A stretch of 64,000 nucleotides of DNA from the NCBI RefSeq assembly GCF_050920415.1, contig NZ_CP169309.1. One strand, 5' to 3'. The DNA comes from Escherichia coli. GTDB lineage: Bacteria > Pseudomonadota > Gammaproteobacteria > Enterobacterales > Enterobacteriaceae. Numbering within the stretch: the stretch's first letter is position 1; every line of letters starts with the position of its first letter. Position numbers and translations under genes: made by a program. The notes below the pieces were generated by a model, which was given only the letters and a program-made list of their open reading frames with translations, was not told the DNA's origin and made no database searches. Shown here one piece after another: positions 53,891-58,571 of this stretch.

Positions 53891-54472
53891 GCGGGGAGTT
53901 TATTCATGGGGGATGTCCTTGTCCGTTCCCAAAACAGGCAACAAAAAACAAATGAGATCAAGGTAATATCTCTTCACTTGCAGGCTCGAACAGCAGGCAA
54001 TTGCCAATATAATAATCTGGCACAAGGGTGAAAAACGCGCACCGCATAAACCGTTGTTATTGCTTAAAGATTAGCCGGATGCCTTAATAGACATCCGCGC
54101 CTTTTCGATTATGGCTCGGAAATCTACGAACCTCTGCACAGTTTACTGGAACGTTTTGGACCACAGCGTTCACAGTACCGACCTGATATGCCGTTCTGGC
54201 GATTATAAGGCGACGGATTCTGGCAAATAGACGATGATAATATGCTTAATGATGTTCAAAGAAATTAGGCCATCATTATATTATTGCTTGCATTTTCTTT
54301 CATTCCCAAAAGCACCCGCCATTAATCCCAGGCGCATTATGCAAAGGAAAATGATTAGGTAAACAATAAGATTTATAATCAGGAAAGGCGACTCGCAATA
54401 AAACGCAAAGTCGCCTTAACATTGGTAAAATATGCCCTTTACTACTCCTGTATCATGAACGGCTCATCACAT

Positions 54473-57400
54473 TTAAAGCTGACGTTGATCCAGACTGCTA
54501 TATATTGCCTTTATTTCATTTTTTACGCTTTCGCCACGGTACACCAAAGACGTATCGTATCGTTGATACTTATCTTCCCGTGCAGCACTGAACCAGTTAA
54601 AAGATCCGACACACAGCAGTTCTTCATCCTCAATCACAATTTTGCTGTGGACACGATTAACCAATTTCGTAGCGATACCCATCTTATTGAGCTTTTCAAC
54701 AGCATCATTCAGCAGATGTTTTTTCTCCTGACGCTTATCATCATCGACATGCGCTATATTGCAGTTTTTATCCGTCACCACAGTAATATCAATGCCCCGG
54801 GAACGGGCCAAAGCCATTGATGCCAGAAATCCCGTTTGCTCCATTTTTTGCCAGGATAACCAAGGGGAAATAATCGTTATTTTCTTTTGAGCTCCGGCAA
54901 GAGTCATGTTCAAAAATTCATCATGCTGCTCCACGCCATGCAGCGTTGAAATTTGTGTATGTGCGGAAATTAAATCCTGTCGTTTATGAAACTCAAATTG
55001 CAACGCATTATTATCTGAAGAAAAGAGATATTTTGCCAATAACCCTCGCGGCGAAAATGCGGGCTGCATCTCGATAAGGTCCATATCGCCAAATACCAGA
55101 AAACTATCTTTAGCGCGTGAGACAGCAACATTGAGGATACTGCTGTTGCTATCAAGAAACCTGCCATCTTCATGTTTTGAGTAGACTGGAGAAAAGAGAA
55201 CAATCGCCCTTTCCGCCCCCTGCAAGGAGTGCACAGTCCCCACTGTCAGTGAACCCTCCTCGTCTTTGCCATTAATTTCCAGCTTACGCAATGACGTTTT
55301 GATAGCATTAACCTGCGCCGAAAATGGCGTCACAACACCAACAACTTTGTACAGTGGTTCCCCGTAATGGCGCTCTATATCATCCTTATGTGCCACCAGC
55401 CATGCTGCTATTGTTTCAGCTTCAAGAGGGTTATAACGGCTCCCCCCATTTGGCTTCATGCCTCTACCATCAATATGTAAATATCCCATTGCGGGGAAAA
55501 TCGTCCCTTTTTCCATCCCTCTTTTAGGCTGCAACTTACCGTGATAGCAAAGTGAGTTACAGTAGCCGATGATGTTATTGAAACAGCGACGATGCTCATA
55601 CAGATACATTCCGCGCTCGAACTTGGGATCATACTGGTAGTGAGAGTTAAACTGGGCTACCTGCATTACGCTGCCAGATGCTGCACTTTTTCCAGACCCA
55701 CACACGTGAGTATATGTATTTATTAACTCTTCCTGAGTGCCACCAGAAATAATATTCTCCTCAAGCATATTGCCCATATCAGTGACGGGTAGACAATTCC
55801 AGATTGGAGCTATTTGCTCCGTATCGCCAATCACCAGCGCTTTCTTCGCCAATGCAAAGGAAGCTGCAGCAACCTCCGGGAGTACCTGCCCGGCTTCATC
55901 GACAATCAGTAAATCAGCAAAGTTATATAAATAATTATTATCCGATGTTCTATCGCCACCAAAAGATTTTCTTCTGTTCATATGGTAAGGCAACATGTAG
56001 CAGGTCATCACCACACAAGGAGTAAGTTTCATTCTTCTTAGCCAACGAGCCTCGGCGATAGTTATCCCGGTAATTCCTTTTTCTTTTTGCAAATTATCTA
56101 TAGCTGCCATATCAATCAGCCAACGCCCCTCCCAATAATGGGTCGCTACCAAGAACGCTGGAAAACGAATCTGAGTATCGGCAAGTTCATCCGCTCCTGA
56201 AAGATTCAATTCATCGTCACCTCTGTAACCCAAAGCATAAGTCAACTCACGCCATTGTTTTGCAGCTTCTATTTCGCGTCGGGCTATATCCTTCGCATAG
56301 TTGATGTTCTGTTGGCACTCATCCTGCTCCTTTTGCGTTTTAGCAATCAAACTATCAATAAATTCATCAATATCTTCGGGATAATTTCCCTGGAACGATG
56401 TCATTCTTGTGCCAAACGTAGAGTCCAGGAAGAGGTTAATCTGGTAATGGCGTTTAGTACGAACAGCAGGAAGCCATGACAAAACCGCATACACTAGCGA
56501 CTCATCAGCACGGTATTGCTGCCACTGCTTTTTACCTCTTGTTAAAAGTGAAATTTCATTGCCAATATTGAGAAGACGTGTGTTTTCGTCCTGAAGATAC
56601 TGGTCGAGATTCTCACTGATGGCTCGCTGTTCATGGCGGATATCATTAAGCCTGCGCCATGTGGGTTCGATTTGCTGAAGTTGAATAAACTGTGAAGTTA
56701 AACGTTCATGCAAAAGCGTCACTACATGCTCTGGTGAATTGCACTCTCCAGCTCCAAACGCCACCTCCGCTTTTTCAAGGTAAAATGCCCGGGCTTTTTC
56801 CAGATATTCCTGGGATTCAACGTGGTTAAAAAAATCTTCAGTCTGGTATTTCTTCGCAGCCTCAACCTGACGGCTTTTAGACGGAAAATAAGCGCCATAG
56901 CTTATTACCTCCGGCAACCAACGACCAGCCATTACGCCAAAACCAGTAGAGAAATCTTTTCCAAAGGCTTCAATAATATTGGTGACGGCCTGATTGTTAG
57001 TTGATGTGGCAATAATTACAGGAGGTTCAGCTTGATTAAGTGCGGCTCTAGTCCATTCGGTGGCGATAATAGAAAGCACCAGCGTAGTTTTACCCGTTCC
57101 CGGAGGACCGTTAACAGCGAGCATATCCCCCTGCTGTTGAGTCAGATAATGGCTCAGGGCATCGCGCTGCGCCACTGCCAGCGGAAACTTATCGCCGGAA
57201 TGCCCCAGACGTTCGCAGAACATAGCATTCTTAGCGAGAAGTGGCTCTAGTGGAACCATTTCATTTGAGGCAAAACGCGTTAATAGAGGAACCTTAACCT
57301 GGCTCATCAGCAGATGGTCATACAAAGGCAGGATATGAACACTGGCCCCTACATGCTGGCTAGCTTTAACAATATAACCGTATCCAGCCCGTTCGTATGG

Positions 57401-57988
57401 CTCAGATGTAGCGACCCAATTTCCAGCGACGTTTCTTAAAAGGTTATCTGACTGTTGAAGATAATTTTGCCAATGCTGACGATACCTGGCATGGCGTTCC
57501 GCTTTCTCTTCGTCAGTTTCTTTGTAATGTTCTGGTTGACCTTCATTAATGGTGGCTGTGTTATGCGTAGTTTTGTATTTGTCATATTGCACCAACTCAC
57601 CAATAGAAAAATGACCGGAAGGGAGAGGTTCAAGCAGATCGCGGGGAATAGTGGCTGAAGCGGCAGGAAACAAAAAACCTTCCCTATTAAGAAGAGCGGA
57701 GGTAACCAGTGGCGTAATAATTGCGGGTGCACCTGCCGTTTGCTCTTTGCCATGCTTTACAATGCGGTTCCACACCTGGGGCCGTAACACGACTTCAACG
57801 TTTTTTACAGACTCCCCTTCACCGTCAAAAAATGCCCGAATAGTTTCGTCATCCAACTGCCCTGCGGTGATATTTATCCACCGAATGAATGATTCCGTAT
57901 CTTTACGTGAAAACGTTCCTTTGCCAGATTCGGCGTCAGCTAGGGAGTTGCGCCAGTATGAAGTGAATCCCAATGTATTGCTGTCCAT
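54473..57988 (-). CDS. SF1 (Upf1/DNA2-like) helicase fused to a C-terminal PLD-family (HKD) nuclease; candidate single-gene defence protein (Mokosh type II-like architecture)
   Basis: 1171-aa ORF. Helicase motifs: Walker [12 protein letters not shown], Walker B LIVDEAGQ, later motifs [17 protein letters not shown] and [18 protein letters not shown]-terminus carries one HKD motif, [20 protein letters not shown]. About 280 aa of unassigned N-terminal sequence. Lies directly 3' of leuX; K-12 has only a truncated helicase-like pseudogene (yjhR) at the corresponding position, as I recall. Confidence 0.8.
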
Positions 57989-58254
57989 TTCTCATTCCGT
58001 GACATAATAGAAATCATTGATTTCATTGATGTAAATATTACTTATGATTAAACATTGTCCACGATGCGAGCGCGATCGCAATAAATATTGTGCCTGGAGG
58101 ATGGATTAGATTTTCTGAAAGAGCTAAATCCTTAATAGATAAACGCGTACATACTTGGTTCGGTATTCTTAAGGGATTTAATATGGATTGAACCAGGTTG
58201 ACGTTAGTTGAAAAAAACAGTGGAAAAGATTTGTGTGGCGCGGATTTCAGGCAT

Positions 58255-58278
58255 AAAAAAAGACCTCAGTTGAGGTCT
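58255..58278 (-). terminator. Rho-independent terminator of leuX
   Basis: Hairpin AGACCTCA-GT-TGAGGTCT followed, on the transcribed minus strand, by a U-run (AAAAAA on the + strand at 58255-58260). Confidence 0.75.
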
Positions 58279-58291
58279 ATTTACATACTTT

Positions 58292-58376
58292 TGGTGCCGA
58301 AGGCCGGACTCGAACCGGCACGTATTTCTACGGTTGATTTTGAATCAACTGCGTCTACCGATTTCGCCACTTCGGC
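58292..58376 (-). tRNA. leuX: tRNA-Leu (anticodon CAA)
   Basis: 85-nt sequence on the minus strand ending in CCA (TGGTGCCGAAGGCCGGACTCGAACC... on +), with a CAA anticodon loop and long variable arm; recognised as leuX. Confidence 0.9.
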
Positions 58377-58571
58377 ACTGAAGAGGTATGCGGAAAACGT
58401 TGTGGATTATACCTGTCGCACGCCACCATGCAAGCGCCAGCTTGCTCGCACCTCGCTAAGTGCTGAAATTTTCAGCATTGCATACAGCGATGTGCAACCT
58501 TTGTCACACTCCAGGCACCACGCCCTACCATGCTCTACACTTCCCAGACAACACCAGAGAAGGACAAAAAT

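Follow-up and report, generated by a model that had tools for sequence, protein, structure and literature searches.

An apparently unoccupied leuX attachment site in Escherichia coli, flanked by older defence DNA

Between leuX and nanS, the stretch of Escherichia coli DNA analyzed here (64,000 nucleotides; referred to as the window) carries a single long open reading frame (ORF). ARAGORN, Rfam, the list of ORFs and annotation all confirmed the original prediction that the tRNA gene is followed only by a helicase-PLD gene, a spacer and nanS (Table 1). In the RefSeq annotation of a 100%-identical genome, the corresponding region holds a 32-aa hypothetical protein, a restriction-endonuclease pseudogene, yjhR and tRNA-Leu, and nothing else. 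IS elements were absent between leuX and nanS, and a search of positions 53500-58700, spacer and intergenic region included, returned no RNA families besides tRNA (Rfam, E<=1). The nanS region is 97% identical to that of E. coli 2017.09.02CC. The GC content of the interval is 45% in yjhR, 42% in the spacer and 35% in the yjhR-leuX intergenic region, compared with 54% in ahr.

Table 1. Features of the interval from nanS to leuX, with positions in the window
Feature	Position	Strand	Evidence
nanS, sialate O-acetylesterase, 326-aa ORF; distal conserved flank	52910-53890	+	ORF list, annotation of matching genomes
YthB-like 32-aa ORF, deletion chimera	53809-53907	-	translation; tblastn/blastn against intact L029 HNH gene
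Fragment of PT-DNA-binding (SBD-HNH) restriction endonuclease pseudogene	53991-54235	+	tblastn
44-bp junction, no homology to intact locus	54237-54280	not assigned	gap between blastn segments against L020 and L029
yjhR = mkoC, intact type II Mokosh gene, 1171 aa	54473-57988	-	PADLOC, Pfam, motifs, dN/dS
Upstream region travelling with mkoC	57989-58099	-	blastn and promoter scan
Arm X, DNA directly 3' of leuX	58145-58291	-	flank identity after attR copies, arm comparisons
leuX, tRNA-Leu(CAA)	58292-58376	-	ARAGORN and Rfam

The long ORF, for which the RefSeq product name is 'helicase YjhR', encodes a full type II Mokosh protein, on which purifying selection acts. YjhR matched the PADLOC profile of MkoC (PDLC03924) end to end with 1466 bits (residues 1-1169 on profile positions 1-1135 of 1136), and the MkoA and MkoB profiles only in part. 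Its Pfam domains are AAA_11 (273-461), AAA_12 (795-969), PLDc_2 (1029-1153) and PLDc (1110-1134). An N-terminal COG1112/Upf1-like SF1 helicase, with a Walker A motif (GPPGTGKT, 294-301) and LLIVDE at 693, is joined in the same polypeptide to a C-terminal PLD nuclease, in which the HxK(x)4D motif reads HSKIVIED (1114-1121). This architecture is that of type II Mokosh (MkoC; Millman et al. 2022), with no difference found, and YjhR was previously named as a fused Mokosh (10.1101/2022.12.12.520048). Values of dN/dS were 0.13-0.14 against three divergent Escherichia alleles (dS 0.20-0.40) and 0.28 against a 99.7%-identical allele. [quoted passage not shown] By analogy, MkoC of the window would act as a monomeric SF1 (Upf1-like) helicase that senses phage nucleic acid and is coupled to a PLD nuclease, and both activities would be needed for defence. 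What sets YjhR apart from known type II Mokosh is the rarity of such an intact allele on the chromosome, the gene being best known from its K-12 pseudogene; its activity is a predicted one.

The 582-bp spacer between nanS and yjhR (53891-54472) had been thought to lack ORFs of 60 aa or more and possibly to hold a decayed gene. The first statement stands for ORFs wholly inside the spacer, which reach 40-42 aa, but a 132-aa antisense ORF begins at 54422 and extends into yjhR; in addition, a 50-aa ORF (53809-53961, minus strand) overlaps the end of nanS. As to the second, a homology search of the spacer identified remnants of two genes. The spacer consists of the remains of a divergent gene pair, encoding an HNH endonuclease and a restriction endonuclease that binds phosphorothioated (PT) DNA. 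The damage comprises a frameshift, a stop codon and two deletions, and a few Escherichia still have both genes intact. The YthB-like ORF, annotated 'protein YthB' in K-12, begins with the first eight codons (MNKLPAHL) of a 216-aa HNH endonuclease gene, present intact in the comparison reference L029 (1303-1953), which a 627-bp deletion joined to sequence antisense to the 3' end of nanS. An NCBIfam search with the 216-aa HNH protein gave no match, and its matches to the PADLOC type IV methyl-directed restriction family were weak and partial (about 24 bits).

The second remnant aligns with intact 290-aa proteins at 87-92% identity (tblastn, E=1e-35) in two blocks, codons 8-32 at 53991-54065 and codons 35-89 at 54071-54235. 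A frameshift separates the blocks, an in-frame stop (WRL*GDG) interrupts the reading frame, the start region is disrupted and the C-terminal 200 codons, the HNH domain among them, are deleted. The 44-bp junction marks a 725-bp deletion, mapped relative to L020 and L029. The peptide APHKPLLLL, quoted earlier as a protein-like fragment, is real and corresponds to residues 24-32 of the 290-aa enzyme. The intact L029 homolog scored 437 bits (cut-off 180) on NF045808, the family of ScoMcrA-type SBD-HNH PT-dependent type IV restriction endonucleases. The spacer fragment aligns to residues 8-89 of these enzymes, the sulfur-binding-domain region with its HKPLLLL motif; unlike them, the window copy, reduced to codons 8-89 with a frameshift and a stop, falls outside NF045808 and is a dead fragment from which the HNH nuclease domain is gone. 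The nanS-side junction is a deletion scar through older restriction genes and not a clean boundary.

The opposite end of the interval is formed by an intact leuX, the last 20 nt of which (58292-58311) match the attP core of phage P4, annotated as 20 bp long (GAGTCCGGCCTTCGGCACCA), at 20/20 positions; hence P4-family and other tyrosine integrases can use leuX. From leuX to the conserved flank, neither an integrase gene, a second core copy nor mobile-element genes are present. Repeats of the leuX 3' end, sought over the whole window with its last 25 nt (<=3 mismatches) and last 14 nt (<=2), were absent near the interval, the sole other 14-nt match (39460) being at chance level, and tblastn with three leuX-island integrases (E<=1) found no integrase remnant in 57900-58400. 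The claim that integrase, IS elements and tRNA 3' repeats are all missing was borne out, and the proposed search for a partial direct repeat was negative. The interval has the atypical cargo composition and patchy distribution of a classical tRNA island, but direct repeats of the tRNA 3' end do not flank it and no integrase gene adjoins the tRNA; some 150 bp resembling an integrase arm are all that remains.

This arrangement was compared with occupied sites in eight other inspected E. coli genomes and in the cryptic-clade Escherichia sp. E1V33. In these, the 3' end of leuX recurs as a 14-20-nt copy, and P4 satellites or larger islands fill the space from leuX to this copy, with four junction types, genuine P4 satellites among them. 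The copy is followed by a leuX-distal flank identical to that of the window and then by yjhR, which in all attR copies observed lies on the B' (chromosomal) side. With 2017.09.02CC, for example, an 11.6-kb P4 satellite (int, gop/beta, psu, delta, alpha) is situated between leuX and ...TTTGAGTCCGGCCTTCGCACCA, beyond which come arm X and yjhR; immediately past CCA its attL ceases to resemble X and agrees with the P4 P' arm. The HNH, PT-endonuclease and yjhR genes are all intact in 2017.09.02CC, and the latter two in E1V33. Arm X is the B' flank of attB for the modern islands. Given that the leuX flank and yjhR come after the attR copy in island-bearing genomes, the site in the window represents the unoccupied attB state, as originally predicted, whether never occupied or precisely excised. 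The interval is very probably the unoccupied attB of the leuX hotspot (defence hotspot #37), and the defence DNA that flanks it is older, lacks an integrase and comes in two layers.

The site might be secondarily empty, an island or P4 satellite having once been integrated and then precisely excised to regenerate attB; P4 satellites are able to excise. Within a group of closely related alleles, with 99.5-99.8% identity across the junction, the site is empty in three genomes and filled in three others, by two different element types; such coexistence of empty and occupied states indicates that turnover at leuX is fast, and it speaks for excision. Precise excision leaves no mark, however, so that the sequence itself offers nothing in favour. 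Moreover, in three of the four attR junction types beside X the core has a single G, CTTCGCACCA, a defect absent from both leuX and P4 attP, whereas the GG expected of a functional tRNA is present in the window; depending on the crossover, excision could have moved the defect into leuX. A past occupation of this site is possible but, on balance, somewhat doubtful.

Nearly all E. coli carry an integrated element at leuX; the strain of the window does not. In a set of 5,426 complete E. coli genomes, 1,729 (32%) retain a 3' fragment of yjhR at the same location, 12 possess the full gene with its 5' part, and in three yjhR lies directly against leuX as in the window (junction-specific search and annotations). 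The original prediction was to be refuted if the helicase-PLD/nanS junction were invariant across all E. coli, island-bearing strains included. This came true in part, the junction being common to the 1,729 genomes, with island-bearing K-12 among them, which places yjhR outside the modern islands rather than among their cargo. Compared with the P4 attB/KpLE2 locus of K-12, the window has the same tRNA, the same idn/ahr side and the same series of nanS, spacer and yjhR 3' end; K-12 differs by about 38 kb (intB, IS elements, fec, sgc and others) where the window holds no integrated element. The contents of the K-12 island had been stated correctly, but the 3' 1.24 kb of the helicase gene (its 3' third), which K-12 keeps adjoining nanS, had been omitted. 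K-12 also has the PT-endonuclease fragment but, unlike the window, is without the first 2.3 kb (5' part) of yjhR, and of arm X it keeps no more than 50 bp (100% identity over those 50 bp). With the decayed spacer in common, K-12-type genomes derive from a window-like arrangement by loss of arm X and the 5' two-thirds of yjhR.

Arm X, inside which lies the intrinsic terminator of leuX (58261-58278 plus a T-run; terminator scan), resembles the integrase-proximal arm of intB-type leuX islands over the first ~150 bp past the tRNA gene. Its identity to arms preceding integrase genes is 78-88% over 115-149 bp, and it shares a GTCAACC...TCAA motif with integrase-proximal arms. X-like arms stand before integrase genes in K-12, JNQH498, JNEC-KY180 and CP026085. 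P4 was considered as the source of arm X and rejected, its P' arm being unrelated to X. A sequence 83.6% identical to arm X, without an adjacent integrase, occurs in S. Infantis; the nearby leuX-ahr spacer (86% identity) and ahr (79.5%) have diverged to about the same extent, and arm X could instead be old chromosomal DNA.

Beyond Escherichia, mkoC is scattered at 66-73% identity and in unrelated contexts among Pantoea, Enterobacter, Xenorhabdus, Serratia, Yersinia, Erwinia, Buttiauxella and Aeromonas. The homology is confined to the ORF and about 100 bp upstream: in blastn comparisons with 13 loci of other genera, its start falls at 58035-58099 and its end no more than 41 bp from the stop codon (54472-54513). 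The upstream region, which includes a promoter-like site (58061-58034; promoter scan), is ~70% conserved relative to these other mkoC loci. The gene adjoins tRNA-Leu(CAA) in Pantoea endophytica, Xenorhabdus kozodoii and S. Kentucky, and is found next to leuX in four genera. In S. Kentucky the gap between leuX and mkoC contains a 155-aa ORF with the N-terminal ~118 residues of a P4-family integrase (E=3e-28); in Pantoea the two genes are 96 bp apart, without an X-like arm. None of the 15 contig loci searched had a P4-family integrase within 7 kb of mkoC. Two mkoC-bearing Salmonella records labelled 'plasmid' or 'phage' (OX345039, OR850961) proved to be short linear chromosomal contigs and do not represent excised circles. 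In Xenorhabdus, a 304-aa ORF was identified by PADLOC as a type IV methyl-directed restriction enzyme (508 bits), and it gave no match in an NCBIfam search.

The recurrence of mkoC beside leuX in four genera, together with the likeness of X to integrase-proximal arms and their common motif, could suggest that X and mkoC form a minimal islet that is still mobile, moved in trans by P4-family integrases. The nanS side has no second copy of the att core, which argues strongly against this notion; the junction there is a deletion scar common to 1,729 genomes, and the leuX-mkoC junctions are unlike from genus to genus. Present-day mobility of this kind is very improbable.

Low GC content, the patchy occurrence of mkoC across genera and the truncated integrase between leuX and mkoC in Salmonella indicate that the interval is not native DNA; it is a relic defence islet, of an ordinary kind, within a known hotspot. 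For the same reasons, and given the arm-like X and the deletion scar on the nanS side, the terms 'no island' and 'ancestral' used in the original prediction were overstated: what fills the interval is a set of defence genes that show the features of an island. It may be that yjhR arrived as cargo of an older P4-family leuX island, the integrase of which has since been lost, and that later elements integrated on the tRNA side of yjhR. Because the window has no trace of an integrase and the interval no distal repeat, this island origin in Escherichia is suggested by analogy and by the similarity of the arms.

Alternatively, yjhR and arm X may be ancestral Escherichia chromosome, lost in most lineages by deletions that accompanied island traffic. 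The location of yjhR on the B' side of every attR copy and the constant place of its 3' end in 32% of E. coli are consistent with such ancestry, as are the divergent alleles (dS 0.20-0.40) that share the locus in E. coli, E1V33 and SCPM-O-B-8794, and the near-core divergence of the X-like sequence of S. Infantis. Ancestral DNA is difficult to reconcile, however, with the low GC of the yjhR interval, the patchy presence of mkoC in unrelated contexts outside Escherichia, the restriction of cross-genus homology to little more than the ORF, the Salmonella integrase stub and the abutment of yjhR on deletion scars of other defence genes. X-like arms also vary by 12-22% among E. coli strains, compared with 2-6% for the adjoining leuX-ahr spacer of the same strains. 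Ancestry of this kind is accordingly considered unlikely.

A wider view, offered only tentatively and itself unlikely, regards the leuX hotspot as a palimpsest: at the tRNA, new elements come in and older ones go, but on the far side a single ancient attR scar endures together with the oldest cargo, X and mkoC. Three element junctions by X share the one-G core defect, and mkoC is located by leuX in four genera, once with an integrase stub; both observations fit a palimpsest. If it were true, orphan defence genes beside tRNA genes would be what has survived, and become fixed, as one island after another was replaced.

In the literature, leuX is listed as hotspot #37, and 97% of isolates have defence genes there (Hochhauser et al. 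2023; EcoSal Plus review PMC12707154; PMC10121019). Like other loci of this tRNA-leuX-anchored, hypervariable hotspot, where PT-dependent restriction, McrBC, Zorya II and Dpt are found, the window carries defence genes, here Mokosh; it differs in missing the usual integrase at the leuX anchor and in its minimal content, one presumably live system and two dead genes. All parts of the interval are of known kinds, and the value of the finding is mainly one of clarification, leaving the current understanding of tRNA-linked islands and Mokosh unchanged. What K-12 carries as the pseudogene yjhR is the last (3') third of a gene for type II Mokosh defence, which about 0.2% of complete E. coli genomes keep intact, and the K-12 small protein YthB together with the unannotated spacer by nanS is the debris of two restriction-endonuclease genes. 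An island-free leuX attB does exist in nature, if rarely, and strains with it would be convenient recipients for P4-family elements and natural material for tests of chromosomal Mokosh II.

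Read from the 3' end of leuX in the direction of falling coordinates, the interval comprises an intergenic region, one long ORF (yjhR), a spacer with ORFs of 40-50 aa at most, and the stop codon of nanS. The single Rfam match within 53500-58700 was leuX; no repeat of its last 25 or last 14 nt was found near the interval, and three leuX-island integrases used as queries had no match in the region separating leuX from the ORF at a threshold as loose as E<=1. Escherichia coli MFDS1022581 is colinear with and essentially identical to the window, and its RefSeq annotation of the interval lists a 32-aa hypothetical protein, a restriction-endonuclease pseudogene, 'helicase YjhR', tRNA-Leu, and nothing else. 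The original prediction that leuX is followed only by a helicase-PLD gene and then nanS was thus correct.

Features of the window (PT-RE, phosphorothioated-DNA-binding restriction endonuclease)
Feature	Position	Strand	Remarks
Immigration control region	1-~9000		MFDS1022581 annotation
IS2	25957-27287		1331 bp
nanS	52910-53890	+	ORF listing; stop codon borders spacer
YthB-like ORF	53809-53907	-	32 aa; named YthB in K-12
Spacer	53891-54472		582 bp; between yjhR and nanS stop codon
PT-RE remnant, codons 8-32	53991-54065		87-92% identity
PT-RE remnant, codons 35-89	54071-54235		87-92% identity
yjhR	54473-57988	-	1171 aa; ORF listing
yjhR-leuX intergenic region			303 bp
Arm X	58145-58291		first 147 bp after leuX; opens with leuX terminator
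leuX, tRNA-Leu(CAA)	58292-58376	-	sole tRNA in window

In matching genomes, including K-12 J53, RefSeq/PGAP annotates nanS as an incomplete sialate O-acetylesterase pseudogene (345-615 bp); its 326-aa ORF is intact in the window. The IS2 copy disrupts the inverse autotransporter gene iatD, and the otherwise identical MFDS1022581 has no IS2 there, carrying one instead between nanM and nanS (~window 52966). By the MFDS1022581 annotation, the window opens inside the immigration control region (with type I R-M hsdMSR, symE and a GmrSD-family enzyme), ~45 kb from leuX, which places two defence hotspots inside one 64-kb window.

Aligned with eight other yjhR-complete E. coli genomes and Escherichia sp. 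E1V33, the window matches across yjhR, all of the intergenic region and a further 14-20 nt of the leuX 3' end, where the match ends; each of these partial leuX ends is an attR copy of the core. The clearest occupied counterpart is E. coli 2017.09.02CC. There, leuX is intact and an 11.6-kb P4 satellite (int, gop/beta, psu, delta, alpha) separates it from ...TTTGAGTCCGGCCTTCGCACCA, beyond which comes the DNA found directly after leuX in the window; on the leuX side, the sequence changes at once to the P4 P' arm. Elements at the site form four junction types: P4-like satellites of two kinds, a CP4-type island whose end carries DUF4942/CbtA/RelE genes, and an IS-rich restriction island. The last 20 nt of leuX are the annotated P4 attP core. 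Together, the attR copies, the four junction types and the identity with the P4 core indicate that several independent element types have the window configuration as their unoccupied (attB) state. The emptiness proposed for the site was borne out, since occupied relatives have the same flank beyond the attR copy. The window attB would either never have been occupied or have been emptied by precise excision, two histories that sequence alone cannot separate; empty and occupied states are both present within one 99.5-99.8%-identical allele group.

The attR junctions of six comparison loci (L029, from 2017.09.02CC, and L030, L020, L034, L035 and L039) were compared over the equivalent of window 58292-58311. 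Next to X, three of the four attR junction types have CTTCGCACCA, with one G, and CTTCGGCACCA, with GG, is found in leuX, P4 attP, the fourth junction type and O157:H7. The one-G core could reflect recurrent loss at crossover, or one old scar retained through serial island replacement.

The suspicion that the spacer holds a gene remnant also proved right, and two genes are represented. Between nanS and yjhR, 2017.09.02CC has three genes: a 29-aa ORF, an intact HNH endonuclease (216 aa, - strand) and an intact PT-RE (290 aa, + strand) that scores 437 bits on NF045808 (cut-off, 180 bits). Mapping of this locus onto the window revealed two deletions, one of 627 bp that removed HNH codons ~10-216 and one of 725 bp that removed the last 200 PT-RE codons, including the HNH domain, and adjoining intergenic DNA. 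The surviving PT-RE codons contain a frameshift and an in-frame stop, and the peptide APHKPLLLL, singled out originally, corresponds to PT-RE residues 24-32. The 627-bp deletion made the YthB-like ORF a chimera, which opens with the first 8 codons of the HNH gene and continues into the antisense strand of the nanS 3' end. In other genomes, intact PT-RE occurs next to McrBC or next to type II Zorya. A distant PT-RE homologue (32% identity) lies convergent with and immediately downstream of mkoC in Enterobacter asburiae (L015 10599-11546), as in Escherichia, which may represent recurrent pairing or coincidence within defence islands.

Searched against PADLOC, the yjhR product aligned end to end with the profile of MkoC, which is the only protein that type II Mokosh has (1466 bits over profile positions 1-1135 of 1136). 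It has the Pfam domains AAA_11 and AAA_12 (SF1 helicase halves) and a C-terminal PLDc_2/PLDc, with an intact Walker A (GPPGTGKT, 294-301), LLIVDE (693) and PLD motif (HSKIVIED, 1114-1121). Against three divergent Escherichia alleles, dN/dS was 0.13-0.14 at dS 0.20-0.40, and yjhR is thus under purifying selection. [quoted passage not shown] The type II protein was described as a monomer with a narrow phage range (preprint 10.1101/2025.07.10.664194), and YjhR has already been named a fused Mokosh (10.1101/2022.12.12.520048). Given these features and descriptions, yjhR is predicted from its sequence to be a known defence system; its intactness is the unusual part.

The interval is probably not native chromosome. 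Its GC content is 45% in yjhR, 42% in the spacer and 35% in the yjhR-leuX intergenic region, compared to 54% in ahr. Among species-representative genomes, mkoC was found at 66-73% identity in Pantoea, Enterobacter, Xenorhabdus, Serratia, Yersinia, Erwinia, Buttiauxella and Aeromonas, with cross-genus homology confined to the ORF and ~50-110 bp upstream. Orthologues (~60-73% identity) lie beside tRNA-Leu(CAA) in three species: immediately after it in Pantoea endophytica (L014 5956-9750), where the shared upstream homology starts 96 bp beyond the tRNA end; after an intervening type IV restriction gene in Xenorhabdus kozodoii (L016 5350-10519); and in Salmonella Kentucky (L028 1-1868), where a 155-aa ORF between leuX and mkoC includes ~118 residues from the N-terminus of a P4-family integrase. 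Over 50 bp, arm X is 100% identical to K-12, and over 115-149 bp it shares 78-88% identity with the DNA lying between leuX and the integrase start codon in other islands. While the site itself is empty, the low GC, the scattered mkoC, the Salmonella integrase stub and the island-like arm X make the earlier wording of 'no island' and 'ancestral' too strong. There is about an even chance that X and yjhR would be the leftover of an older integrase-bearing island, with the HNH/PT-RE pair an even more decayed neighbour and later elements inserting on the tRNA side. X could instead be old chromosomal flank, because in S. Infantis it has 83.6% identity with no integrase adjacent, a divergence no greater than that of neighbouring core DNA.

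Among 5,426 complete E. coli genomes, the 3' 1.2 kb of yjhR was present in 1,729, including K-12, BL21(DE3) and ST131, and the 5' 2.3 kb with the upstream region in 12, which form two allele groups (~99.7% and ~94.4% identity to the window). The 5' region was directly continuous with leuX in three (MFDS1022581, 2020CK-00188 and R32_14_1F). Every component is of a described kind (P4 attB at leuX and K-12 KpLE2; defence hotspot #37, reported to hold defence genes in 97% of isolates (PMC12707154; PMC10121019); type II Mokosh; SBD-HNH PT-dependent restriction enzymes). The configuration is rare but unsurprising, and RefSeq already contains and annotates it.

The decayed spacer is also present in K-12, which retains the last ~413 yjhR codons and has a ~38-kb island (topAI, sgc, fec, IS elements, intB) between this remnant and leuX; in K-12-type lineages, at least two yjhR truncation points exist, at window 55700 and ~55572. 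The data support a three-step order of events. The initial state would have been nanS-HNH-PT-RE-yjhR-X-leuX, all intact, a gene arrangement that 2017.09.02CC shows, although an element occupies its leuX, and that E1V33 shows partly (PT-RE and yjhR intact). Two deletions and point mutations would then have wrecked the restriction pair, giving the window state. Finally, in K-12-type lineages, an island would have entered leuX, and a deletion would have taken the distal end of this island together with X and the 5' part of yjhR.
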